Below are positions 1,936-37,343 of a stretch of 37,343 bases of DNA, in pieces; position 1 is the stretch's first letter, and the number at the start of each line of letters is the position of its first letter. The notes below the pieces were generated by a model. That model saw only the letters and a list, made by a program, of their open reading frames with translations, searched no databases and was not told the origin of the DNA. Both the position numbers and the translations under genes were made by a program. This DNA comes from Pseudomonas phage LUZ100: the sequence record OP329100.1. One strand, written 5' to 3'.

Positions 1936-2320
1936 TCTCCCTGGAGGATGCGCTGGACATCGGGGTGATCGTTCTCCTGATAGGCGTGACCGTGTTTTTC
2001 GTGAGCATCACTTAGGAGTAACTCGGTCTGGAATCGTCTGTCGTCGAGGCGGTACAGGGCGAAAGGAACTCGCAGGGCAAGACGTACTAGAGAGGCAGAC
2101 GCCCGAAGTCTGCTAAGTGCATAAGTTACAAGGGTTATACGAGAAGATGTACATCAGTTTTTGCTCTCCCCAAATCTTCGGAAAGCGGTGCTTTTTTGAG
2201 TTCGATAGTAATTCACGTCCGCAACAGATGCTAGACTGGATTGTCGAACCGAATGATGTTTTACTGTGGGTGTGGAGGTTCCACATCGTCATATCCAAAG
2301 AAACTAGGAGGTAACAAACC

Positions 2321-2650
2321 ATGGCTCTGACAGCTCTCGCAGTGATCGAGGAAGTACTCAAGCGGTTCCGCGACTTCGATCAGGAGATGCAGACTGCCCA
2401 GACATTCATCGCGGTCGCTATGCAGCCCGGCATCACCATGAAGGAGCTATCGGAGAAGGTTGGCATTTCTCAAGCGTCCTGCAGCCGCAACGTCTCGGCC
2501 CTGTCCCGAGTTCACCGGCTGAACAAGCCAGGGATGGATCTGGTTGTGGCTGCAGAAGACCCGATGGAACGCCGCCGTAAGGTAGTCAAGCTGACCCCGA
2601 AAGGGCAGCGCCTTGCCGAGACACTGACCCAACTGATCGAGGAGAAGTAA
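2321..2650 (+). CDS. MarR-family winged-helix transcriptional regulator (109 aa)
   Basis: RBS ctaggaggtaacaaaccATG; motif ELSEKVGISQASCSRNVSAL...ERRRKVVKLTPKGQRL typical of the MarR HTH and wing; lies just upstream of the integrase. Confidence 0.6.
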   Translation: MALTALAVIEEVLKRFRDFDQEMQTAQTFIAVAMQPGITMKELSEKVGISQASCSRNVSALSRVHRLNKPGMDLVVAAEDPMERRRKVVKLTPKGQRLAETLTQLIEEK

Positions 2651-2657
2651 CAGAGGT

Positions 2658-2743
2658 TGGTGCTCGGAGCGGGACTCGAACCCGCAAGACCGTAGGTCGG
2701 AGCATTTTAAGTGCTCTGTGTCTACCAATTTCACCATCCGAGC
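2658..2743 (-). tRNA. tRNA-Leu (anticodon TAA), 86 nt with long variable arm; likely attP core
   Basis: Minus-strand read GCTCGGATGGTGAAATTGGTAGACACAGAGCACTTAAAATGCTCCGACCTACGGTCTTGCGGGTTCGAGTCCCGCTCCGAGCACCA folds with a 7-bp acceptor stem, 3-bp D stem, anticodon loop CTTAAAA, 5-bp T stem GCGGG/CCCGC and CCA. Confidence 0.8.
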
Positions 2744-2755
2744 GAGGAGATACCC

Positions 2756-3829
2756 ATGCCGGTAAAGCCAAGAGGTCGTGGCTTTGAGGCCACAGTTAAC
2801 CACCAAGGGGGGAAGTACCGGAGGCAATTCACAACCCAGGTCGAAGCCGAAGCCTGGGAGAAGGCGACCAAAGCCGCCCTGATGAGGGGCGAGATGGTAT
2901 CAGAAACAACCAACTCTGCCAACGGAAATCCTAGCACTCTCAAGGAGTTGGCTGACTTAACTTACAAGCGATTCTGGCAAGGGCGCCCTGGAGGAGAAAC
3001 GGCCCTACGAAACGCAAAGCAGTGCATCAATATCCTCGGTGAGGGGATGTCCCCAGGCTCAGTAAACGAACAGCGCATCGACGACATGGTGTTCGCCCTA
3101 GAGCAGCTCGGGCTGTTCGACAGTACGATCAACCGCAAGCTCTCCGCTTTGTCCAAGATGCTGACCTTCGCCTATGAGCGGGGCTACATCAGCCGCAAGC
3201 CGAAGATCGAACGCAAGAAAGAACCCCAGAACCGCATCCGCTACTTCGACGAAGCAGAGGAGCAGCTCATCCTGGGAGCCTTCACCCACTTCGGGATGCT
3301 CGACATGGTCGACTTCTGCATCGTTGCAATCGACACCGGTATGCGGGTCGGTGAGATTCTGCGGATCGAAGACCGGGACGTAGCCAATGGGCTGGTGTCC
3401 GTGTGGCGCACGAAGAACGGTAAGGCAAGATCCATCCCGATGACGAAGCGCGTGGCTGAGGTATTGGAACGCCGCTTCAAGGAGGAGCGTCGCCGGATGA
3501 ACACCATCGGCAACGTGAAAGCCTTTGAGGGGTGGAACCACAGCAAGATCCGCACGCTGTGGGATCGAGTGCGCCGTCACCTGAAACTCATGACCGACCC
3601 GCAGTTCGTACCCCATGCAATGCGGCACACCTTCTGCTCCCGGCTGGTTCAGCGTGGAGTGGACATCGTGACGGTCTCGAAGCTGGCCGGTCACAGCTCC
3701 ATCGTAGTCACCATGCGGTACGCTCACCTCGCTCCCGATAGTCTGGCCCATGCCATTCGGAAGCTGGAAGAACCCGCAAAAGATGTAAATCCCCAAGCTC
3801 GACACACGACACAAGTTGTGTCGCGGTAG
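2756..3829 (+). CDS. int: Tyrosine-type site-specific integrase
   Basis: RBS gaggagataccc-ATG at 2756; C-terminal catalytic motifs HAMRHTFCSRLVQRGVDIVTVSKLAGHSSIVVTMRYAHL (H-x-x-R...H...Y); the ORF-track extension from 2711 would overlap the tRNA. Confidence 0.85.
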   Translation: MPVKPRGRGFEATVNHQGGKYRRQFTTQVEAEAWEKATKAALMRGEMVSETTNSANGNPSTLKELADLTYKRFWQGRPGGETALRNAKQCINILGEGMSPGSVNEQRIDDMVFALEQLGLFDSTINRKLSALSKMLTFAYERGYISRKPKIERKKEPQNRIRYFDEAEEQLILGAFTHFGMLDMVDFCIVAIDTGMRVGEILRIEDRDVANGLVSVWRTKNGKARSIPMTKRVAEVLERRFKEERRRMNTIGNVKAFEGWNHSKIRTLWDRVRRHLKLMTDPQFVPHAMRHTFCSRLVQRGVDIVTVSKLAGHSSIVVTMRYAHLAPDSLAHAIRKLEEPAKDVNPQARHTTQVVSR

Positions 3830-3960
3830 TGTCGAGAGCCGTGTTTGATGCGGTAGTGGAAAGGTTGAACATCAATAAAATCAACCACTTACGCTACGCA
3901 TAGTCTCCTGCAACAGACTTAAAAGGTCTTGCATCCGACTATCCACTGGCACATTGAATA

Positions 3961-3988
3961 ACCCGGCATCGTCCGGGTTTTCTTTTCC
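3961..3988 (+). terminator. Rho-independent terminator after int
   Basis: acccgg-catcgt-ccgggt stem-loop followed by tttctttt. Confidence 0.6.
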
Positions 3989-4019
3989 CATCAACTATCC
4001 ACTGTCGCAACCTTTGCAG

Positions 4020-4052
4020 ACCGCTCGACACAGGACACGAGCGGTTTGTGTC
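4020..4052 (+). terminator. Second hairpin (8-bp stem accgctcg/cgagcggt) with a weak T-tract, terminator or processing site
   Basis: Perfect 8-bp inverted repeat with 10-nt loop, then ttgtgtcg. Confidence 0.35.
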
Positions 4053-4080
4053 GTCACGGCTCTCTGACGCCCTGCTTGGC

Positions 4081-4103
4081 AATTACCACACAGTCTTGGA
4101 GCA
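4081..4103 (+). promoter_or_regulatory. Phage RNAP promoter, family A copy 1 (AATTACCACACAGTCTT|GGAGCA), upstream of the RNAP gene
   Basis: Matches the 7-copy family A consensus; resembles K11/T7/T3 promoters (AATTA at -17..-13, CACA at -9..-6, purine-rich GGA start). Confidence 0.6.
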
Positions 4104-4160
4104 CCGAGAGGTGACCTCCGAGGCCGGTTCCTTAAAGCCAAACTCAGAGAGATCCAATAG

Positions 4161-6686
4161 ATGACTTCCATCATCACCAACCAACTGATTCAGGAAATTG
4201 AGAACAACCAAGAGTGGCAAGAGAAGTTCGACCGTCAGGTAGAACTTGAGGAGAAGATGCGAGGTATGGGCGTCGACCGTCACTGGTCGGAGGTAGCCAA
4301 GGCCAGGGAGCGTGGTCAGGAAACCAGCGTCCGCTCCGTCCGCCGACTGATGAACTCGTCAGTCGCCAAGATCGCAGAAGGCATCCGCCAGTTCATCGAG
4401 AGCTGCGAGTCCGGCAAGGCTGGCCGCAAGCACAGCGCATACCCACTGCTCAAGCAGATCGAACCCGAGTCCGCAGCCCTGATCACCGCACGGGTGGTAC
4501 TGGATGGCGTGGCCAAGGGTGACCTGCTGGTTCCCCTGGCTCGCCGCGTTGCGTCCCTGATCGAGGACGAGCTGGCCTTCCGTGAGTTCGCCAAGGCGGA
4601 CAAGAAGACCTACGACTGGCTGGTCAAGCGCGAGAAGCGAGTCAACGGCAGCAGCTACCGCCGCCAGCGGCTGACCATGCTGCACAACATGGAGGCCCGC
4701 AACATCGCATGGCAGGAGTGGACTGCCCGCGAGTCCCTGCTGGTCGGCTCCAAGCTGATCGAGATCATGACCGAGACCACCGGCCTGATCCAGAAAGTCA
4801 CCCGCACCGTGGATGTGAAGCGCCAGGAGGTAGCCATCGAGGCCACCCCTGAGACCATCGCCTGGATCAACGAGGAGAACAACCGCTGCGAAGCTCTCTC
4901 CCCGGTGTACCTGCCCACCATCATCCCGCCTCGCCCCTGGACTTCACCGTTCGAGGGCGGCTACTGGACTCCGCGTGTCCGCCGACTGGCCCTGGTCAAG
5001 ACCCACTCGAAGGGGTACTTGGAGGAGCTGGCCGAACACGACATGCCGGAAGTCTACGATGCGATCAACGCCATGCAGCACACCGCCTGGGCCATCAATG
5101 GCCGGGTGCTGGAGGTGGTTCGCAACCTGTGGAACAACGGTGCCACTCTGGGTGGTATCCCTGCGGCTGACGATCTGCCGCTCCCGCCGAAGCCCCTGTT
5201 CCTTGAGCAGGAGCTGCCCCGCGAGGAGTGGTCGGAGGATCAGGTGCGCCAGTTCAAGGAGTGGAAGCGCGAGGCAACCGACACCTATGCGTCCAACGCG
5301 AAGCTGAAGTCCCTGCGTCTGCAGTTCGCCAAGGTGTTGATGATTGCCGAGATGTTCGAGCATGAGGAGGAAATCTACTTCCCGCACCAGTTCGACTTCC
5401 GTGGCCGGGCCTACGCTGTGCCGATGTTCCTGAACCCCCAAGGCAGCGACATCGCCAAGGGTCTGCTGGAGTTCGCCAATGCGGTAGCGATCAACGACGA
5501 GGAAGGTGCCAACTGGCTGGCCATCCACGGTGCCAACAGCTACGGCTACGACAAGGTCTCCCTGGCCGAGCGTGTGCGCTGGGTGCAGGAGAACGAGGGC
5601 GAGATCCTGGCCTGTGCTGCTGACCCGTACAGCCACAGCATGTGGGCCAAGGCCGACAAACCGTTCCAGTTCCTGGCGTTCTGCATCGAGTGGGCAGAGT
5701 TCAAGCGCGAGGGCTACGGCTACCTGTCGACCCTGCCCATCGCAATGGACGGTAGCTGCAACGGGCTGCAGAACTTCTCGGCCATGCTGCGTGATGCCAT
5801 CGGCGGCGAGGCCGTGAACCTCGTGCCCCAGGAGAAACCGGCGGACATCTACCAGAAGGTGGCCGACCGTGTGGTGCTGCGTGTCGAGGCTGATGCCATC
5901 GGCCAGGACGAGGAGCTGGCGAAGCTGGCCCAGGGCTGGCTCAAGCACGGCATCAACCGCAAGGTGTGCAAGCGCCCGGTGATGACCCTGGCCTACGGCG
6001 CCAAGGAGTTCGGCTTCAAGACCCAGGTGTTCGAGGACACCGTCATGCCGTACAAGCTGAAGGCTGGCAAGGAGTTCCCCTGGGAAGGCTCCGGCTGGGC
6101 TGCCGCTGAGTACATGGGCAAGCTGATCTGGGAGTGTGTCGGTGAGGTGGTGGTCGCTGCTCGTCAGGCTATGGACTGGCTGCAGAAGGCTGCGCGTCTG
6201 GCCGCGAAGGAAGGACTGCCGGTGCGCTGGAACACCCCGGACAATCTGGTCGTGCTCCAGGCGTACCCGAAGATGCTGACCGAGCGCATCGACCTGACCT
6301 TCGGGGGCAGCCGTCACCTGCTCACCGTGGCAGTCAGCCCGACCACCGAGCTGGATCGCAACAAGCAAGCCAACGGGATCAGCCCGAACTGGGTTCACTC
6401 GATGGACGCCAGCCACATGCGGGCCACTGTCCGCCGCTGCTGGAACGAGGGGATGCGCAGCTTCTCCCTGATCCACGACAGCTACGGCACCCACGCCGGG
6501 AACGCCTGGGCCTTGGCCAAGTTCCTGCGGGAGGAGTTCGTCATCATGTACGAGGAGGATGTGCTGGAAGACTTCAAGCGAGAACTGGAGCGGCAGCTCC
6601 CCGAAGGATCGGTGCTCGATCCGCTACCCCCGAAGGGCAACCTGAACTTGGCTCTGGTGCTGGAGTCCGCGTTCTTTTTTGCCTGA
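4161..6686 (+). CDS. T7-like single-subunit DNA-dependent RNA polymerase (841 aa)
   Basis: Collinear with T7 gene 1 product: PRPWTSPFEGGYWTPRVRRLALVKTHSK, DMPEVYDAINAMQHTAW, FPHQFDFRGRAYA, AMDGSCNGLQNFSAML, HDSYGTH, C-terminus PKGNLNLALVLESAFFFA. Confidence 0.95.
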   Translation: MTSIITNQLIQEIENNQEWQEKFDRQVELEEKMRGMGVDRHWSEVAKARERGQETSVRSVRRLMNSSVAKIAEGIRQFIESCESGKAGRKHSAYPLLKQIEPESAALITARVVLDGVAKGDLLVPLARRVASLIEDELAFREFAKADKKTYDWLVKREKRVNGSSYRRQRLTMLHNMEARNIAWQEWTARESLLVGSKLIEIMTETTGLIQKVTRTVDVKRQEVAIEATPETIAWINEENNRCEALSPVYLPTIIPPRPWTSPFEGGYWTPRVRRLALVKTHSKGYLEELAEHDMPEVYDAINAMQHTAWAINGRVLEVVRNLWNNGATLGGIPAADDLPLPPKPLFLEQELPREEWSEDQVRQFKEWKREATDTYASNAKLKSLRLQFAKVLMIAEMFEHEEEIYFPHQFDFRGRAYAVPMFLNPQGSDIAKGLLEFANAVAINDEEGANWLAIHGANSYGYDKVSLAERVRWVQENEGEILACAADPYSHSMWAKADKPFQFLAFCIEWAEFKREGYGYLSTLPIAMDGSCNGLQNFSAMLRDAIGGEAVNLVPQEKPADIYQKVADRVVLRVEADAIGQDEELAKLAQGWLKHGINRKVCKRPVMTLAYGAKEFGFKTQVFEDTVMPYKLKAGKEFPWEGSGWAAAEYMGKLIWECVGEVVVAARQAMDWLQKAARLAAKEGLPVRWNTPDNLVVLQAYPKMLTERIDLTFGGSRHLLTVAVSPTTELDRNKQANGISPNWVHSMDASHMRATVRRCWNEGMRSFSLIHDSYGTHAGNAWALAKFLREEFVIMYEEDVLEDFKRELERQLPEGSVLDPLPPKGNLNLALVLESAFFFA

Positions 6687-6736
6687 TACAATCCACTAGC
6701 GCATAGGTTGCGCATGTGTAACGTCGAGCCAGGCGG

Positions 6737-7667: not shown

Positions 7668-8113
7668 TGGCTGCTCCCCGAGAGGCCGGGCTTCGGCTCG
7701 GCTTCCGGTCGGGACTTGAGGAGAAGATCGCCCGAGAACTGGATGCCCACGGCATCGAGGTTCAGTACGAAACCGAACAGATCCGCTACGTCAAACCCGC
7801 CCGCGAAGCCAAGTACACCCCCGACTGGATACTGCCCAACGGAATCATCGTCGAGACCAAAGGCAGGTTCGTCGTCGAAGACCGCCAGAAACACCTGATC
7901 ATCAAGGAGCAGCACCCCGGCCTGGACGTGCGCTTCGTCTTTTCCAACTCCCGTACCCGCATCAGCAAGAACAGCAAGACCACCTACGCAATGTGGTGTG
8001 AGAAGTACGGGTTCCTGTTTGCCGACAAGTCCATCCCCGAGGCGTGGCTCAAAGAGCCGCACAGCCCGGAGCGTTGGGCTGCCCTGGAGAATGCACGAGT
8101 CAAGAAGAAATGA
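7667..8113 (+). CDS. Endonuclease I (T7 gp3-like Holliday junction resolvase)
   Basis: FRSGLEEKIARELD...YTPDWILPNGIIVETKG...KHLIIKEQHPGLDVRFVFS...FADKSIPEAWLKE collinear with T7 endonuclease I; start overlaps SSB stop (ATGA). Confidence 0.9.
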   Translation: MAAPREAGLRLGFRSGLEEKIARELDAHGIEVQYETEQIRYVKPAREAKYTPDWILPNGIIVETKGRFVVEDRQKHLIIKEQHPGLDVRFVFSNSRTRISKNSKTTYAMWCEKYGFLFADKSIPEAWLKEPHSPERWAALENARVKKK

Positions 8114-11607: not shown

Positions 11608-13404
11608 ATGAAGACCCTTGAGTTCGACTGTGAAACAAACGGGCTGCTACACCAGCTCGACCGCGTCCATTCCCTCGTGATCAAGGACGCAACCACCGGG
11701 GAGCGTGGCTCCTTCGCTGACCAGCCGGGCTACTCGCCCATCAAAGAGGGGCTGGCTTGGCTGATGGAGGCTGACCTTGCGGTTGGTCATAATGTGGTCA
11801 AGTTCGACGTACCTGCGCTGCAGCAGGTCTACCCCTGGTTCGACATCCCGCTCGAACGGCTGCGTGACACTCTGGTACTGACCCGCCTGATCTGGCCGGA
11901 GATCGGTGACCGGGACACCGGCCTGATCCGCAAGGGGAAACTGCCAGGGAAGCTGCGAGGCTCCCACTCCTTGGAAGCCTGGGGCTATCGCCTCGGGGTC
12001 TACAAGGGTGAGTTCGGTAAGACCTCGGACTGGCAGGTCTGGACGCCTGAGATGCAGACGTACTGCGAGCAGGACGTTGAGGTCACCGATGCGCTGTGGA
12101 AGAAGATCCAGTCCAAGGAAGTGGCCGAGCGCGCCGTCGAGCTGGAGCACTGGTTCGCCTTCATCATCGGTCTGCAAGAGCGCCACGGGTTCGCCTTCAA
12201 CACCCAGGCAGCCGCTGCTCTGTACACCACCCTGGTGGCCGAGCGGGAGAAGCTGGACTCGGAACTCAAAGGCGCCTTCCGGCCCTGGTACGTCAACGCC
12301 GGGGTCGTCATGCCCAAGCGCCCGAACCGTACCCAGGGCATCGAGGCCGGGGTTCCGTACTGCAAGGTCACCCTGCAGGAGTTCAACCCAGCCAGCCGAC
12401 TGCAGATCGCTGACCGCCTGACCAAGCTGCACGGCTGGAAACCCCAGGAGTTCACCGATAGTGGCCAGCCCAAGGCCGACGAGACGGTGCTCTCCAAGCT
12501 GCCGTACCCAGCGGCCAAGCTCCTGGCTCGCCGGTTCCTGATCGAGAAGCGCATCGGGCAACTGGCCGAGGGGAACCAGGCTTGGCTCAAGCTGGAGCGC
12601 AAGGGGCGCATCCATGGCTCGGTGAACACCATCGGTGCCGTGACCGGGCGCTGTACCCACAGCCACCCCAACGTCGCCCAGGTGCCGTCAGTCCGCGCCC
12701 CATTCGGCAAGGAGTGTCGGGCACTGTTCGGTGCTGACCCTGGCTACGTCCAGATCGGTGCCGATGCCTCGGGCCTTGAGCTGCGCTGCTTGGCCCACTA
12801 CATGGCGCGGTATGACGGGGGAGCCTACGCCAAGGTTCTGCTCGAAGGTGACATCCACACGGAGAACCAGAAGGCAGCCGGTCTGCCCACTCGGGATAAC
12901 GCGAAGACGTTCATCTACGCCTACCTCTACGGGGCTGGCGACGAGAAGATCGGGCAGATCGTTGGCAAGGGTGCGAAGGAAGGGAAGAAGCTCAAGGAGA
13001 ACTTCCTGAAACGCACCCCCGCATTGAAGCGGCTACGCGAAGACGTTGCGTCAGCCGTGAAAAAGCGGGGCTACCTCGTCGGGATCGACGGGCGACACCT
13101 GCACATCCGATCCGACCACGCCGCCCTCAACACCCTCCTGCAATCAGCCGGTGCCCTGTTGGTTAAACAAGCCACGGTCAACTTGTATCGGGAGCTATCC
13201 ACCCGTGGATACGTCTTCGGCAAGGACTGGGCGATGTTGGCCCACGTTCACGACGAGTACCAGCTCCAGGCCAGGAAGGAGATCGCAGACGAAGTTGCCC
13301 AGGTAGCCGTGTGGGCCTTCCAGCAAGCGGGCCGCGACTTCAACTGGCGGTGCCCCCTGGATGGTGAGGCCAAGACCGGCACGAACTGGGCGGAGTGCCA
13401 CTGA
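11608..13404 (+). CDS. Family A DNA polymerase with 3'-5' exonuclease (T7 gp5-like, compact 598 aa)
   Basis: Exo I LEFDCETNGL; motif A GADASGLELRCLAHY; motif B KTFIYAYLYGAG; motif C HVHDEY. Confidence 0.9.
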   Translation: MKTLEFDCETNGLLHQLDRVHSLVIKDATTGERGSFADQPGYSPIKEGLAWLMEADLAVGHNVVKFDVPALQQVYPWFDIPLERLRDTLVLTRLIWPEIGDRDTGLIRKGKLPGKLRGSHSLEAWGYRLGVYKGEFGKTSDWQVWTPEMQTYCEQDVEVTDALWKKIQSKEVAERAVELEHWFAFIIGLQERHGFAFNTQAAAALYTTLVAEREKLDSELKGAFRPWYVNAGVVMPKRPNRTQGIEAGVPYCKVTLQEFNPASRLQIADRLTKLHGWKPQEFTDSGQPKADETVLSKLPYPAAKLLARRFLIEKRIGQLAEGNQAWLKLERKGRIHGSVNTIGAVTGRCTHSHPNVAQVPSVRAPFGKECRALFGADPGYVQIGADASGLELRCLAHYMARYDGGAYAKVLLEGDIHTENQKAAGLPTRDNAKTFIYAYLYGAGDEKIGQIVGKGAKEGKKLKENFLKRTPALKRLREDVASAVKKRGYLVGIDGRHLHIRSDHAALNTLLQSAGALLVKQATVNLYRELSTRGYVFGKDWAMLAHVHDEYQLQARKEIADEVAQVAVWAFQQAGRDFNWRCPLDGEAKTGTNWAECH

Positions 13405-13945: not shown

Positions 13946-14676
13946 GAGCGCAGTACGTTGACCACATGGGCAGCGACCTGAGCGTGGTGAACGCTGCCCG
14001 CGTGTCCTTCGACAAGGTGTCCCAATGGGAACGCCCGGTGCTGCGGGTCGAGACCTACATCCACCCGCACAACGGCGACGAGATAGAGCACAAGGTACTG
14101 GGCGAGCCGCGCCTCTCCCAGGCCGACTCCAGGCTGATCCGCTACCTCGCCAAGCACGACCACTGGACACCCTTCGCCCACACCAACATCACCCTGCGCA
14201 TGAAAGCTCCGGTGCCGATCCGCACGCAATGCTTCAAGCACAAGCAGGGTCTGGTGGAGAACGAGGAGTCTCGCCGGTACATCAGCTCGACCCCTGAGCT
14301 GTTCGTCCCGTCCGTGTTCCGCAGCAAGCCCGAAGGCTCGGCCAAGCAAGGCTCTGCCGGTGAGCACCCGCGCAGCCATGAGTGGCGCCGGGAGTACCGC
14401 ATGGCTGGCGAGTACGCGATCCGCCTGTACGAGGACATGATCCGTGACGGCGTCTGCCCGGAACAGGCCCGCTTCATCCTGCCGCAAGGCTGCGAGGTGA
14501 ACTGGATCTGGACTGGCAACCTGTACGCCTTCGCCAACTTCTACCTGAAACGCACCGACCCGCACGCCCAGCACGAGATTCAAGTGCTGGCCCAGGAGGT
14601 CGGCTCAATCATCGAACCGCTGTTCCCAGTCTCCTGGGCGGCTTTGACACGTCTGGAGGAATCCACCAGTGGATGA
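13942..14676 (+). CDS. ThyX-like (flavin-dependent thymidylate synthase fold) protein with a divergent active-site motif
   Basis: HWTPFAHTNITL...FKHKQGLVENEESRRY aligns to the ThyX RHRx7SxRY signature (RHR replaced by KHK); ARFILPQGCEVNWIWTGNLYAFANFYLKR matches the ThyX C-terminal AR..LP...NLR.W..F..LR block. Confidence 0.5.
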   Translation: MRAQYVDHMGSDLSVVNAARVSFDKVSQWERPVLRVETYIHPHNGDEIEHKVLGEPRLSQADSRLIRYLAKHDHWTPFAHTNITLRMKAPVPIRTQCFKHKQGLVENEESRRYISSTPELFVPSVFRSKPEGSAKQGSAGEHPRSHEWRREYRMAGEYAIRLYEDMIRDGVCPEQARFILPQGCEVNWIWTGNLYAFANFYLKRTDPHAQHEIQVLAQEVGSIIEPLFPVSWAALTRLEESTSG

Positions 14677-16392: not shown

Positions 16393-16415
16393 AATTACCA
16401 CACAGTCTTGGAGGA
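16393..16415 (+). promoter_or_regulatory. Phage RNAP promoter, family A copy 5 (AATTACCACACAGTCTT|GGAGGA), phi6.5 analogue
   Basis: Family A consensus; followed by an A-rich leader shared with the right-end copy. Confidence 0.6.
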
Positions 16416-34557: not shown

Positions 34558-35010
34558 ATGCGTTTCTGTGGAGCTTACAGCCCTATGAAAATCTGTACCC
34601 AATGCAAACAAAACAAGCCCCTAGATGGATTTCATAAACACCCTAATGGCACTTACGGAGTGGCTTCAAAGTGCAAGGATTGCCTGAAGTTCGCTCATAG
34701 GAAGAAGTCAGTACACAAAGTCCTACTGAACAACGCAAAGAACAGGGCGCGTAATAGAGGTCTGGACTTTTCTCTGTCCAGCGAGTGGTTGGCGGCCAAG
34801 TTGGAGAAAGGAGTGTGTGAAGTAACCGGAATCAGGTTTGAAGGTTACTGCTCCTCGTTCGCCCCCTCCCTCGACAGGAAAGACCCTGCCAAAGGCTACA
34901 CCGAAGATAACACTCAAGTTGTCGTTTGGATTTATAACCGCTGCAAAAACAGCGGGAGTCATGAAGATGTACTCCGCATGGCTTTAGCTTTGTCTGGGGG
35001 TATCCACTGA
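34558..35010 (+). CDS. HNH endonuclease (possible alternative start at 34585)
   Basis: Cys-rich N-terminus (CTQCKQNKPLDGFHKH...CKDC) and HNH core PSLDRKDPAKGYTEDNTQVVVWIYNRCKN; markedly lower GC than its neighbours. Confidence 0.7.
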   Translation: MRFCGAYSPMKICTQCKQNKPLDGFHKHPNGTYGVASKCKDCLKFAHRKKSVHKVLLNNAKNRARNRGLDFSLSSEWLAAKLEKGVCEVTGIRFEGYCSSFAPSLDRKDPAKGYTEDNTQVVVWIYNRCKNSGSHEDVLRMALALSGGIH

Positions 35011-36704
35011 TGGATAGCAAAAAAGGTCACAAACTCCCAGAGGGGCACCCACTCTACGACTTTCGCAACTTCCTGTTCGTCGTGTGGGAGTTCCTGTGGA
35101 ATGCCGGGGCCATCACGGCAGCAAAGCCAGACCCCACCCCAATACAATACGACATCGCTCACTTCCTCCAGCACGGCCCTCGACGCAAGGTCATCGAGGC
35201 GTTCCGGGGGGTGGGCAAGAGCTGGATCACCTCGGCCTACGTCTGCTGGCGACTCCTGCTCGATCCCAACCTCAACTTCCTCGTGGTCTCGGCCTCGAAG
35301 GATCGCGCTGACCAGTTCTCGACGTTCACCAAGCGGCTGATCTTCGAGCTGCCCATCCTGGCCCACCTGCGGCCCAGGGACGGCCAACGCAACTCCAACA
35401 TCATGTTCGACGTTGGCCCGGCTGGTATCAGCCACTCCCCTTCCGTGAAGTCCGTGGGTATCACCGGCCAGCTCACTGGTAGCCGTGCTGACGAGATCAT
35501 CGCGGACGACGTTGAGTCTTTGAACAACTCGCTCACCCAGGTGATGCGCGACCAGCTCTCCGAGCGGATCAAGGAGTTCGACGCGATCATCAAGCCTGGT
35601 GGGCGCATCACGTTCCTGGGCACGCCTCAGACCGAGATGTCGATCTACAACCAGCTCACCGAGCGTGGCTACCAGATCCGCGTCTGGCCAGCTCGTATCC
35701 CAGAAGACCCCGACAAGTACCAGGGCCGTCTGGCTCCCTACATCATGGACATGATCGCCCGTGGTGCTAAGACCAGGGAGACCACCGATCCCAAGCGGTT
35801 CAGCTCGGAGGACTTGCTGGAGCGTGAAGCCTCCTACGGTCGATCCGGCTTCGCCCTGCAGTTCATGCTGGACACCAGCCTGAGCGACCAAGAGAAGTAC
35901 CCGCTGCGGCTACAAGACCTGATCGTCATGCCCCTGGATACCCGCATGGCCCCCGTGAAGGTGGTCTGGTCGTCTGGCCCGGAGTACGTCCTGAACGATG
36001 TCCCGTGTGTGGGCATGGGTGGTGATCGGTTCTACCGGCCCATGTGGACTGCCCAGGACATGGCCGAGTACACCGGCTCGGTGATGTTCATCGACCCGTC
36101 CGGTCGCGGTAAGGACGAGACCTCCTACGCGGTCGTGAAGATGCTCCACGGGTGGCTCTACTTGGTCGACTGCGGGGGTTTCACCGGGGGCTACAACGAC
36201 GAGACCCTCAAGAGCCTGTGCCTCGTGGCAGCCAAGCACTCGGTCAATCTGGTGCTGATCGAGCCCAACTTCGGTGACGGTATGTTCCTCGAACTCCTCA
36301 AGCCCTGGATGACTCGGTTCCACCCGGTCACCCTGGAGGAAGCCCCAAGGGCATCCATGCAGAAGGAGAAGCGGATCATCGACGTACTGGAGCCTGTGAT
36401 GAACCAGCACCGTCTGGTGATCGACAAGGCGCTCGTGAAGAAGGACTACGACTCAGCCCCTGATCCCAAGTACAGCCTGTTCTACCAGCTCACCCGAATC
36501 ACCAAGGACAAGGGCGCATTGATCCACGATGACCGCCTGGATGCGCTTGCAGGGGCCGTTGCGTACTGGGTGGAGCAGATGGGTAGGGATACCGAGAAAG
36601 CCGCTCAGAGCCACCGGGAGAGGCTCCTAGACGCTGAACTGCAGAAGTTCGCACGCAGCGTCCTGGGCTATTCGCCCCAGGCTGACACATGGATGGTTAT
36701 GTAG
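35010..36704 (+). CDS. Terminase large subunit (gp19-like)
   Basis: PDPTPIQYDIAHFLQHGPRRKVIEAFRGVGKSWITSAYVCW...LVVSASKDRADQFS parallels T7 gp19; ATPase Walker A/B then nuclease domain. Confidence 0.9.
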   Translation: MDSKKGHKLPEGHPLYDFRNFLFVVWEFLWNAGAITAAKPDPTPIQYDIAHFLQHGPRRKVIEAFRGVGKSWITSAYVCWRLLLDPNLNFLVVSASKDRADQFSTFTKRLIFELPILAHLRPRDGQRNSNIMFDVGPAGISHSPSVKSVGITGQLTGSRADEIIADDVESLNNSLTQVMRDQLSERIKEFDAIIKPGGRITFLGTPQTEMSIYNQLTERGYQIRVWPARIPEDPDKYQGRLAPYIMDMIARGAKTRETTDPKRFSSEDLLEREASYGRSGFALQFMLDTSLSDQEKYPLRLQDLIVMPLDTRMAPVKVVWSSGPEYVLNDVPCVGMGGDRFYRPMWTAQDMAEYTGSVMFIDPSGRGKDETSYAVVKMLHGWLYLVDCGGFTGGYNDETLKSLCLVAAKHSVNLVLIEPNFGDGMFLELLKPWMTRFHPVTLEEAPRASMQKEKRIIDVLEPVMNQHRLVIDKALVKKDYDSAPDPKYSLFYQLTRITKDKGALIHDDRLDALAGAVAYWVEQMGRDTEKAAQSHRERLLDAELQKFARSVLGYSPQADTWMVM

Positions 36705-37099: not shown

Positions 37100-37343
37100 T
37101 GGCCCTGGAGTTCCCCCCGGTGGGGTGGGCACCTGGTCTGCGAATCGAGGCCGGTGCCGGGGGCTGCCGGTGCTGGTCGGGGGGCTGGCGACACAAGCCA
37201 CGACACAAGATGCCCGCCAAGCCGCGCCGTTGCTGGGCTTGCGAGAGATTAGGAATCCATCGGCCTATCTAGTGGGCGCGCTACCGGGGCAATCCTGGGG
37301 CTTTCCTGGGCGTTCTAGTGGGCTGGCCTGGGGCTTGGCCTTG
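37100..37343. repeat. Right direct terminal repeat (DTR)
   Basis: Exact copy of bases 1-244. Confidence 0.9.

Follow-up and report, generated by a model that had tools for sequence, protein, structure and literature searches.

The region between the integrase and RNA polymerase (RNAP) genes of Pseudomonas phage LUZ100 likely constitutes a compound junction (positions 3916 to 4160), in which an attP core, a transcriptional insulator, a promoter recognized by the phage polymerase, and the gene for that polymerase follow one another and take part in a positive feedback mechanism. The window (i.e., the whole stretch of DNA analyzed) is the LUZ100 genome of 37,343 bp, which has terminal repeats of 244 bp. 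The occurrence of a terminator and a phage promoter before the RNAP gene was confirmed. This part of the finding has been known for LUZ100 since 2023, because Putzeys et al. (mSystems, PMC10134795) mapped the same elements (T4, transcript end at 3985; phi1, start at 4100) and proposed the same positive feedback. To the published model, our analysis adds the location of attP beside this terminator/promoter block.

Upstream of the junction lies a lysogeny operon (2273 to 3829, + strand), which was delimited from Pfam matches and published transcription units and is composed of the host-type promoter P3, a MarR-like gene (gp10, 2321 to 2650), and a tyrosine integrase gene (2756 to 3829; Pfam Phage_integrase). 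The MarR-like protein matched HTH_24 at 28.4 bits (cutoff, 21.9), and its MarR_2 score (23.8 bits) was just under the cutoff of 27. P3 has a published start at 2273 and a palindrome at 2271 to 2286, with units running from 2273 to 2563 and from 2273 to 3985. An initial reading of the sequence, made without database searches (here called the sequence-only reading), had the early host-promoter operon end at a terminator before the RNAP gene. The terminator is real (i.e., T4), but the operon that it closes is that of P3, MarR, and integrase (start at 2273) rather than that of P1 and P2, for which the mapped transcription units end at 732.

T4 spans 3960 to 3988 on the + strand, with a stem at 3960 to 3979 followed by TTCTTTTCCC, the U tract extending to 3988. 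It was the best match of the terminator scan; the scan count by itself was not significant (9 found versus 5.6 expected in 7 kb). The 7-pair stem with five G-C pairs, followed by TTCTTTT, is the structure of an intrinsic terminator. The RNA fold reached −12.1 kcal/mol (z = −2.9), and the stem was unchanged in all five haplotypes compared. The published LUZ100 terminator T4 corresponds to the 100-nt piece at 3926 to 4025, in which transcripts end at 3985; its published termination efficiency by RNA-seq is 61%, and trap assays in E. coli, P. putida, and P. aeruginosa placed it in the top nine for strength. P3 transcripts terminate strongly at T4, with some read-through (PMC10134795). The published sequences of T4, T16, and T1 matched the genome exactly, each at its own coordinates. 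The strong terminator that had been claimed at 3961 to 3988 is therefore borne out by its published transcript end and by its strength in trap assays.

The published annotation places a small protein gene, gp12, over the same stretch (3954 to 4067; 37 codons with a TTG start). We give a protein-coding role almost no credence: two relatives (L002 and L008) lack the start codon, the reading frame is interrupted by stops in L002 and L003, and the ORF crosses the terminator and a second hairpin and has no homologues.

Downstream of T4, the phage-RNAP promoter phi1 (AATTACCACACAGTCTTGGAGCA; 4081 to 4103, + strand) lies 58 bp ahead of the RNAP ATG. It is the first copy of family A (AATTACCACACAG[T/G]), which occurs seven times, always on the + strand (expected: 23-mer, 0; 12-mer, 1.5). 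Each of the seven copies coincides with a published phage-RNAP start, at positions +1 to +3. The family has the features of T7-group promoters, namely, a conserved motif of ~20 to 23 bp in one orientation, intergenic positions, and initiation at the 3′ G run. From the published phi1 start at 4100, transcription units extend to 7711 and 8683 and include the RNAP gene (gp13; 4161 to 6686, + strand), which encodes a T7-type single-subunit polymerase of 841 aa (Pfam RNA_pol, 7.7e-111; RPOL_N, 1.2e-24). A promoter for the gene's own product upstream, together with transcripts that cover the gene, is the arrangement of an autoregulatory polymerase gene. Both the family A promoter at 4081 to 4103 and the broader proposal of the sequence-only reading (i.e., an RNAP gene insulated from early transcription and equipped with its own phage promoter) agree with published data, since T4 termination of P3 transcripts and phi1 units over RNAP have both been reported.

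The phi1 transcript begins with a stem-loop, as had been predicted (4098 to 4119, + strand; −11.0 kcal/mol). In L008, a relative at 96% identity, the stem-loop is kept with changed bases and an extra pair (−14.9 kcal/mol). The structure of the entire phi1 leader was not unusual (z = −1.2). Alignment also revealed a block immediately 5′ of phi1 (4047 to 4080, + strand) that is nearly invariant in five haplotypes; it contains CGTCA-N8-TGACG (4052 to 4069) and is possibly a regulator site.

The layout is conserved in five lineages, with one promoter word per lineage. Relatives with 74 to 79% RNAP identity have an att core (or tRNA 5′ half), one or more strong terminators, one or two phage promoters, and RNAP in this order; the flank of L009 is short and shows only the two promoters. 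The lineage promoter words recur at syntenic sites 3′ of RNAP, and in relatives at 46% and 43% identity the word upstream of RNAP is repeated just downstream of it. The specificity loop of RNAP is variable between lineages amid near-invariant flanks and is identical in L008, which has the LUZ100 promoter word. Promoter and specificity loop thus covary across the five lineages, as T7-group promoters do with their polymerases. A blastn search of the region against a phage database gave at best ~69% identity, to RNAP genes of Rhizobium phages, and a scan of genome contigs with RNAP returned only three matches, which were distant or partial and did not include a Pseudomonas host. The host was therefore assigned from the publication and from IMG/VR prophage contigs.

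The attP common core GACTTAAAA (3916 to 3924, + strand) has the same sequence as the anticodon loop region in the host tRNA-Leu(UAA). In three independent left junctions of prophages (L002, L003, and L008), homology between phage and prophage begins at this core: the host tRNA-Leu 5′ half runs to GACTTAAAA and is followed by the repeat element B1, T4, a second repeat element (B2), hairpin 2, phi1, and RNAP, as in LUZ100. The right junction, in L030, consists of the integrase gene, the phage left arm, GACTTAAAA, and the host tRNA 3′ half. The same core is therefore found at LUZ100 attP, at attL (L002, L003, and L008), and at attR (L030), which is the pattern of an attP site targeting a tRNA gene. 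The junctions are those of relatives with 96 to 99% RNAP identity, not of LUZ100 itself. Comparison of these junction sequences places the attP core at 3916 to 3924, with the tyrosine integrase gene adjoining. The core lies 13 bp upstream of the region that the sequence-only reading had addressed, and it was missed there.

The core is only 9 bp long, and neither junction restores the tRNA. ARAGORN detected no tRNA-Leu at attL (L002, L003, and L008) or attR (L030), and the sequence past the core at the junctions is not tRNA-like. A complete tRNA-Leu(UAA) gene was detected by ARAGORN at 2658 to 2743 (− strand), antisense between the MarR and integrase genes. This antisense arrangement with a matching anticodon is present in three lineages (UAA in LUZ100 and L030, CAA in L010 and L033, and UAG in L034), and the phage tRNA-Leu probably replaces the host tRNA-Leu(UAA) that is split by integration. 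The phage gene was also considered as the attP site and was rejected, the prophage junctions falling at 3916 to 3924. The promoter scan of L008 did not call a host promoter for the split tRNA-Leu and gave only subthreshold −10-like matches; L011 and L012 appear to transcribe the tRNA-Leu together with an upstream tRNA.

Given that attP lies between integrase and T4, a lysogen would carry the P3 operon ~37 kb away, at the other prophage end. With P3 displaced in this way, read-through from the host-type promoter could act as a trigger only on unintegrated DNA. RNAP would then be the first gene behind a truncated host tRNA-Leu in the lysogen, with T4 facing host read-in.

The feedback mechanism that we favor would operate as follows. 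On unintegrated DNA, host RNAP would read the MarR and integrase genes from P3, and most of the transcripts would end at T4. Rare read-through of T4 would give rise to the first phage polymerase, which would fire phi1 (start at ~4098 to 4100) and amplify its own mRNA. Integration at GACTTAAAA would move the P3-MarR-integrase operon to the far prophage end and leave RNAP as the first phage gene after the host tRNA-Leu(UAA) 5′ half, where T4, and perhaps hairpin 2, would shield it from transcription of the host tRNA operon. The role of read-through as the trigger, the switch-like behavior of the loop, and selection for insulation against the tRNA promoter are inferences from these elements. A self-amplifying loop in need of a trigger had been suggested from the sequence at the outset; as a reading it finds support here, and the same model has been published for LUZ100 (PMC10134795). 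The published data set captured no long read from P3 over the whole RNAP gene, and no stable LUZ100 lysogen was obtained (PMC10134795). LUZ100 may itself have ceased to use the part of the design that serves lysogeny.

One could argue that phi1 only boosts the polymerase supply in lytic growth and has no role in lysis/lysogeny, the off state of the lysogen coming from separation from P3, from the terminators, and from repression of host-type promoters. The attP position, which parts RNAP from every phage host-type promoter after integration, is compatible with this idea, as are the transcript data, all of which stem from lytic infection, and the sequence of phi1, which forms a single subtype with the late promoters at 16394, 20617, and 36782 (with TNNTGGAG). 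However, RNAP lies behind a host tRNA operon, and phi1 would amplify any leak past T4, so that a self-promoter beside attL would demand extra control. Moreover, one or two phage promoters stand ahead of RNAP in every temperate lineage examined, a conservation that suggests more than incidental boosting. We thus regard a purely lytic role for phi1 as rather unlikely.

The favored feedback mechanism can be extended, tentatively, to a model in which integration is a topological switch of the polymerase loop, ignition is tied to excision, and the B elements are operators of a prophage repressor. P3, via read-through of T4, would be the only phage-borne host promoter that seeds the polymerase, and its link to RNAP would exist only while the phage DNA is unintegrated or has just been excised. 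Once the phage is integrated, T4 and hairpin 2 would keep out transcription from the host tRNA operon. A repressor bound at B, whether the MarR-like gp10 or a different protein, would shut P1 and P2 and reinforce the insulator.

The B core CTATCCAC occurs in eight exact copies versus 0.6 expected, all on the + strand. The two B elements that had been noted at 3937 to 3954 and 3993 to 4009 were recovered by the repeat search at 3939 to 3954 (B1, CTATCCACTGGCACAT, with TTGCAT ahead at 3929 to 3934) and at 3995 to 4010 (B2, CTATCCACTGTCGCAA), both on the + strand. B is identical at 14 of 16 positions to the perfect palindrome TATCCACnnGTGGATA, which also occurs in the genome. The copies at 376 and 577 overlap the spacer and −10 element of P1 and P2, which are sigma-70-like promoters (TTGACA-17-TAAGAT) with B inside the spacer. 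The B2 core was retained in four of five close haplotypes, and the B1 core was mutated in four of the five (L007, L002, L003, and L008). B appears to be a real dispersed family but, because B1 is poorly conserved, at best a weak candidate for the switch.

The proposal of MarR sites reportedly originates with Boeckman et al. in 2022. Taken literally, the published model would have gp10 silence the lysogen at sites flanking phi1, with B elements as the operators and bound gp10 blocking the phage polymerase. A real, oriented family with such an excess of copies would suit operators, and the overlap with the spacer and −10 of P1 and P2 is an ideal place for a repressor. The other B copies have no transcript start in lytic infection and are therefore not promoters. 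B-like copies occupy syntenic intergenic positions in the relatives at 74 to 79%, and a B copy adjoins the RNAP-proximal phage promoter in L010 and L012. Between LUZ100 and L010, the recognition helix of MarR differs very little, and the left half of B is likewise nearly identical; the near match to a palindrome that itself occurs in the genome points in the same direction. All of this is offset by the lack of a B copy close to phi1 in LUZ100 (B2 ends 70 bp upstream), by the mutated B1 core next to 34 bp 5′ of phi1 that are nearly invariant and contain no B, and by a right half of B that is nonpalindromic in relatives. A search for a motif shared by the P3 and phi1 regions (a possible MarR operator) yielded only two common 8-mers, which we found unconvincing. 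On balance, this use of B by gp10 seems doubtful.

It is very improbable that the trigger is a host-RNAP promoter within the region, formed by B1 and the TTGCAT at 3929 to 3934, or that B elements generally are host-type promoters. P1 and P2 do contain B, and in L012 a site between two terminators 5′ of RNAP reads TTGCAA-17-TAAAAT, its spacer containing B. In LUZ100, however, TTGAAT follows at a spacing of 19 bp and the promoter scan did not call the site; a transcript from B1 would run into T4; and ONT-cappable-seq gave no start between 2273 and 4100, or at B copies beyond P1 and P2.

Other roles for B were considered. The resemblance of CATAGG to T7 TATAGG raised the possibility of another class of promoter for the phage polymerase, which was rejected because none of the B copies outside P1 and P2 has a published start. 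Integrase arm sites were rejected because B copies are scattered across the genome and occur within P1 and P2. DnaA boxes (TATCCAC resembles TTATCCACA) were not favored; the first and last positions are consistently nonconsensus, and conservation reaches 8 to 10 bp further.

The second hairpin, which had been placed at 4020 to 4052, is present at 4016 to 4053 on the + strand (hairpin 2), with a 12-bp stem (4016 to 4027/4038 to 4049) and a fold of −20.6 kcal/mol (z = −2.9). Its pairing is preserved in five haplotypes, in one of which the stem sequence differs. The terminator scan did not call it, and the published mapping reports no transcript end there. The fold, the clustering of motifs, and the comparison with L003 suggest a second, weak terminator, two candidate arm-type sites in inverted orientation (P′ arm), or both. 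CGACACA (4026 to 4032) straddles the boundary between the 5′ arm and the loop, and TGTGTCG (4047 to 4053) runs from the last part of the 3′ arm into the tail. Candidate P-arm sites are found over the integrase stop codon (3800 to 3834), as the nested repeats CGACAC-A-CGACAC-AAGTT-GTGTCG-CGGTA-GTGTCG, and a prophage relative retains these repeats at its attR. Of the 27 copies of CGACAC/GTGTCG in the genome, six fall within the 254 bp from 3800 to 4053 (corrected Poisson P, ~1e-5), clustered on either side of the attP core; the same 254 bp hold 5 of the 14 copies of GACACA.

Hairpin 2 may therefore be mainly a DNA element, in which inverted integrase arm-type sites (CGACACA/TGTGTCG) would form a P′ arm matched by the four P-arm copies at 3800 to 3834. 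Besides the clustering, L003 has a different stem yet retains GACACA and TGTGTCG. At the position of hairpin 2, L010 and L012 carry other inverted hexamer pairs (TGTGGC...GCCACA and ATGTGG...CCACAT), and ACCACA is repeated four times at the 3′ end of the L010 integrase gene. The lack of a published transcript end at hairpin 2 is also consistent with a DNA element. Conversely, compensatory changes maintain the stem pairing, which favors the folded form; the tail UUUGUGUCG, which is U-poor with U's partly within the stem, could still allow weak termination; and the terminal repeat has two more copies of CGACACA, far from attP. Taken together, a mainly DNA-level role is a serious possibility, to which we assign somewhat less than even weight.

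This refinement is relevant to temperate T7-like phages, to the safety of phage therapy, and to orthogonal polymerase/promoter parts. With attP at 3916 to 3924, the published model reads differently: P3 read-through could not be the trigger in a lysogen, and T4 would gain a second, conserved job, i.e., keeping host tRNA operon transcription away from a polymerase gene that amplifies its own expression. The missing LUZ100 lysogens may be explained by the requirements for an attB in a tRNA-Leu(UAA) gene that has the GACTTAAAA loop and for a phage tRNA that substitutes for the split one. The five lineage promoter words, together with the matching specificity-loop variants, are candidate orthogonal RNAP-promoter pairs.

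In T7, with its A1 to A3 promoters, gene 1, and terminator TE, host RNAP must make the first phage polymerase, as in LUZ100, and the two polymerases belong to the same family. The tandem phage promoters just 3′ of RNAP in LUZ100 (6738 and 6785) correspond to T7 phi1.1A/B, and both phages have stem-loops at the 5′ ends of phage-promoter transcripts. Unlike in LUZ100, TE lies after gene 1, so that host RNAP reads gene 1 freely; no phage promoter is known to lie right before gene 1, the only one upstream being the distant phiOL; and T7 is not known to carry an integrase or attP. T7 gene 1 can be transcribed from phiOL, and self-transcription is therefore not unique to the temperate relatives. The T7 autogene, in which T7 RNAP is placed under a T7 promoter and which is said to go back to Dubendorff and Studier in 1991, likewise has a polymerase on its own promoter with explosive positive feedback, and it needs upstream terminators plus a repressor or inhibitor to stay off. 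It is engineered, with lac repressor and T7 lysozyme, whereas the LUZ100 layout is natural and conserved across lineages.

The LUZ100 model of Putzeys et al. (PMC10134795) shares with ours the P3-MarR-integrase operon, T4, and phi1 directly before RNAP, as well as rare T4 read-through that seeds the polymerase, amplification by phi1, and MarR as the proposed repressor. It differs in that attP was not located and the tRNA-Leu was taken as a relic of imprecise excision, in that it includes neither the B family nor hairpin 2 and annotates the gp12 ORF over the terminator, and in that its P3 read-through trigger ignores the separation of P3 and RNAP by integration.

tRNA-dependent lysogeny has been reported for actinobacteriophages (Guerrero-Bustamante and Hatfull 2024, PMC10865867), in which, as in LUZ100, a short core (~10 bp) lies within a tRNA gene and the tRNA is not rebuilt on integration. 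That system was demonstrated genetically in Mycobacterium siphoviruses, whereas the LUZ100 type is deduced from junctions and concerns T7-like podoviruses of Gram-negative hosts. Temperate T7-like pelagiphages (HTVC019P group; Zhao et al., bioRxiv 410191/Environ Microbiol 2019) differ from LUZ100 in host (SAR11) and in sequence, and a terminator and phage promoter between attP and RNAP are not described in the available portion of the preprint. According to that portion, attP lies between integrase and RNAP in all of them, and they share with LUZ100 the order MarR, integrase, attP, and RNAP, a noncoding attP, and attB sites in tRNA genes. In HTVC119P and HTVC200P, as described there, the split tRNA-Leu(TAA) is not restored and a tRNA-Leu upstream of integrase is likely used instead, as we propose for LUZ100.

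The complete genome of the T7-like phage LUZ100 spans 37,343 bp, its two ends (1-244 = 37100-37343) being direct terminal repeats of 244 bp, and has all genes on the plus strand; the same length and terminal repeats have been published for this Pseudomonas aeruginosa phage (Putzeys et al. 2023, PMC10134795). The published 100-nt sequences of terminators T4 (3926-4025), T16 (22135), and T1 (about 675) were present at their published coordinates. Upstream of the gene for the T7-type RNA polymerase (RNAP; ATG at 4161; 841 aa; Pfam RNA_pol, 7.7e-111), the plus strand carries repeat B1 (3939-3954; CTATCCACTGGCACAT), the T4 hairpin (3960-3979, then TTCTTTTCC), repeat B2 (3995-4010; CTATCCACTGTCGCAA), a second hairpin with a 12-bp stem (hairpin 2; 4016-4027/4038-4049), and phi1, a copy of the family A phage-type promoter (4081-4103; AATTACCACACAGTCTTGGAGCA). 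All of these elements, noticed in the sequence-only reading, were confirmed by terminator scan, folding, and motif counts. T4 was the best match in the scan (-12.1 kcal/mol; z = -2.9), and hairpin 2 folded at -20.6 kcal/mol (z = -2.9). Family A was found seven times, only on the plus strand (4082, 6738, 6785, 8626, 16394, 20617, and 36782); the counts expected by chance are 0 (23-mer) and 1.5 (12-mer). The B word CTATCCAC occurs eight times (0.6 expected; all plus strand), and the longer word ATCCACYNNYGCAT six times (0.01 expected). Because these counts are far above chance, the elements are real and non-random.

The published transcript map was generated by ONT-cappable-seq (cap-selective long-read RNA sequencing) during infection. 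It comprises host-type starts at 405 (P1), 606 (P2), and 2273 (P3), phage-type starts at 4100, 6756, 6801, 8644, 8786, 16410, 20635, and 36799, and transcript ends, among them T1 (732) and T4 (3985) (PMC10134795). Each family A copy (7/7) matches a published phage-type start. Two subtypes are visible, namely, ...CAGT(N)2TGGAG at 4082 (phi1) and the late promoters 16394, 20617, and 36782, and ...CAGGTATGGAAGACCGC at the middle promoters 6738, 6785, and 8626; phi1 thus belongs to the late subtype. The RNAP gene lies within the two transcription units that start at 4100 (ends at 7711 and 8683), the genes for integrase and MarR-like gp10 lie within the two that start at 2273 (ends at 2563 and 3985), and the P1 and P2 units stop at 732 (PMC10134795). 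The proposal that the RNAP gene, driven by its own promoter behind a terminator, forms a positive feedback loop is essentially right; as the LUZ100 paper gives the same elements and model (mapped T4; phi1 start at 4100), it coincides with a hypothesis already published, at which the sequence-only reading arrived independently. T4 does end a host-promoter operon, as had been claimed, yet this is the P3 lysogeny operon and not the P1/P2 early transcripts, which end at 732. In a follow-up study, T4 had an RNA-seq termination efficiency of 61% and was among the nine strongest of 25 terminators in trap assays in E. coli, P. putida, and P. aeruginosa (PMC10204088). Part of the transcripts continue past the integrase gene (PMC10134795). 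The suggested switch role of the B elements or MarR is an unproven candidate.

Relatives in IMG/VR (L-numbered contigs) presented this locus in two forms, i.e., a phage form and a prophage junction form. L007 (99% RNAP identity) has the integrase gene upstream, as in LUZ100. In L002, L003/L004, and L008 (96-99%), the match starts at GACTTAAAAGGTCTTGC and runs rightwards as far as RNAP, across B1, T4, B2, hairpin 2, and phi1; its left flank is a host tRNA-Leu(UAA) 5' half, GCCCGAATGGCGAAA.TGGTAGACGCA...GACTTAAAA, preceded by tRNA-Cys in two of these junctions. At its opposite end (L030), the L008 contig carries the integrase gene, phage sequence left of the core, GACTTAAAA, and the tRNA 3' half (TCCCCCGCTCGTAAGGGCGTGCCGGTTCGATTCCGGCTTCGGGCACCA). 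Together, the left junctions and the L030 right junction place the common core of the attachment site (attP) at 3916-3924, 13 bp upstream of the start of the region studied (3929-4160). This core was noticed neither in the sequence-only reading nor in the LUZ100 paper (PMC10134795).

In the prophage, the order from the left would be attL, B1, T4, B2, hairpin 2, phi1, and RNAP, followed by the remaining genome to the terminase gene and terminal repeat, and then P1, P2, P3, MarR, tRNA-Leu, integrase, and attR. Integration would thereby put P3 and the RNAP gene at opposite prophage ends, so that T4 read-through from P3 could start the loop only while the phage DNA is unintegrated or after its excision. 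In the lysogen, the RNAP gene and its self-promoter would come first after the truncated host tRNA gene, where host transcription would enter. T4 begins 36 bp downstream of the attP core, and we infer a second role for it as an insulator in the lysogen.

Conservation of the layout in more distant relatives backs this role. In L010 (RNAP identity of 79%; phage form), L011 (78%), and L012 (74%), the att core (or tRNA 5' half) is followed by one or two strong intrinsic terminators, then by one or two phage promoters, and then by RNAP; L009 (79%), with a flank of only 151 bp, has two visible promoters. The promoter words are lineage specific (ATTAGGGGACAG, ATTAGGTGACAG, ATTAGGACGCAC, and ATTAGTGAACAG; ATTACCACACAG in LUZ100), and each was found again downstream of RNAP at syntenic positions. 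The C-terminal region of RNAP is near-invariant except for one variable stretch, the specificity loop (about 6270-6370), and L008 shares both loop and promoter word with LUZ100. Even in L014 (46%) and L024 (43%), the word upstream of RNAP reappears just 3' of the gene. Across LUZ100 and L008 to L012, five related polymerases differ chiefly in this loop, each having its own promoter word, and are natural candidates for orthogonal RNAP-promoter pairs. L014 also has a plus-strand tRNA-Leu(UAA) between integrase and RNAP, a phage promoter copy inverted to face integrase, and, immediately before the RNAP-proximal promoter, a B-like element in inverted orientation (sites at 4706-4794, 5024-5039, 5100-5117, and 5141-5164).

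The B elements form a genuine family (consensus AACTATCCAC[CT]AGCGCATA[AG]G) dispersed genome-wide in one orientation (AACTATCCACYAGCGCATAGG; plus strand; 376, 577, 3939, 3995, 6689, 6965, 11569, 22150, and 34511), with syntenic B-like copies in the 74-79% relatives. P1 and P2 (TTGACA-17-TAAGAT) each have a B copy as spacer and -10; the copies at 6689, 6965, 11569, 22150, and 34511 lie directly past stop codons. The usual start is 1 to 5 nt past a stop codon or about 8 to 10 nt past a terminator U tract. Except at P1/P2, no start published for lytic infection coincides with a B copy, and we therefore rejected these other copies as promoters in lytic growth. At 14/16 positions, B matches the perfect palindrome TATCCACnnGTGGATA, and near-perfect half-site palindromes (TATCCAC-N2-4-GTGGATA) occur at 13196-13211, 14660-14675, and 35001-35016 (two at gene junctions and one within the DNA polymerase gene) and in L011 (201-218). 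The most economical reading is that B is a dispersed candidate operator for a phage regulator. MarR-like gp10, whose recognition helix is nearly the same in L010, is one candidate for that regulator. The case for B as a switch of the RNAP gene is weak because the B1 core varies among four other close haplotypes (ACCCAC, ATGCAC, ATGCAC, and ATACGT), while the sequence between 4047 and about 4110, which includes phi1 and is free of B, hardly varies; B2 is kept in 4/5 haplotypes. LUZ100 B2 is without both promoter hexamers. In L012 (209-237), a sigma-70-like TTGCAA-17-TAAAAT whose spacer contains a B element lies between the first and second terminators; L010 has TTGCAG-17-TAATCT (about 4400-4435), likewise with B in the spacer and downstream of the first terminator, identified by eye and not called by the scan. 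In both relatives, this promoter-like element precedes the phage promoters and RNAP and may act as a repressor-controlled trigger read by host RNAP. A perfect inverted repeat, TGTGGA-GGT-TCCACA (2271-2286), coincides in position with the published start of P3 (2273) and is a candidate autoregulatory operator of the MarR-integrase operon.

Hairpin 2 pairing is kept in 5/5 haplotypes; L003 has a different stem with the loop-edge GACACA and tail TGTGTCG unchanged. CGACAC/GTGTCG occurs six times in 3800-4053 and 27 times genome-wide (corrected P of about 1e-5), with four nested copies across the integrase stop codon (3800-3834) and two in hairpin 2 (4026-4053). L010 and L012 have another inverted hexamer pair at the hairpin 2 position, and the L010 integrase 3' end has ACCACA four times. 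This pattern fits putative integrase arm-type sites on both attP arms. Weak terminator activity of hairpin 2 is possible; no published LUZ100 transcript end falls there. The terminal repeat contains two direct copies of CGACACAAG (90-96 and 102-108 = 37189 and 37201), a word that also clusters around attP. The annotated gp12 (3954-4067; 37 codons) was rejected as a gene and is probably not one, because its start codon (missing in L002 and L008) and frame (in-frame stops in L002 and L003) vary in close relatives.

Between MarR and integrase, ARAGORN detected a complete minus-strand tRNA-Leu(UAA) (2658-2743); it detected no tRNA-Leu at either prophage junction (L008, 1439-1480; L030, 6150-6220). 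The junction sequences thus indicate that integration at the 9-bp core splits the host tRNA-Leu at the anticodon loop without rebuilding it. The L010/L033 lineage (L010, 3071-3155 and about 4330-4340) has the core GATTCAAAA, with a tRNA-Leu(CAA) 3' half at the right junction and a phage tRNA-Leu(CAA); L034 has the core GACTTAGGA, and its junction 3' half and phage tRNA are both Leu(UAG). L011 and L012 lie downstream of a tRNA-Leu(UAG) 5' half. The phage tRNA, intact and antisense, therefore has the anticodon of the split host tRNA in 3/3 lineages (UAA, CAA, and UAG), which fits tRNA-dependent lysogeny as defined in mycobacteriophages. A replacement tRNA would contradict the published reading of tRNA-Leu as a relic of imprecise excision (PMC10134795). 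Inside the integrase gene, a minus-strand sigma-70-like TTGGCA-17-TACCAT with TG (2922-2894), about 150 nt upstream, could drive the antisense tRNA-Leu.

To the published loop model we add the attP position with its consequences for the trigger and for T4, the layout conserved across lineages with co-varying polymerase and promoter, the likely arm-site nature of hairpin 2, and the replacement reading of the phage tRNA-Leu. In temperate T7-like pelagiphages, every attP lies between integrase and RNAP (bioRxiv 410191), and the LUZ100 placement agrees; a remark there on the tRNA-Leu of HTVC119P and HTVC200P also fits the replacement reading. To date, tRNA-dependent lysogeny has been shown in actinobacteriophages (PMC10865867), whereas in the LUZ100 group it is read from sequences.
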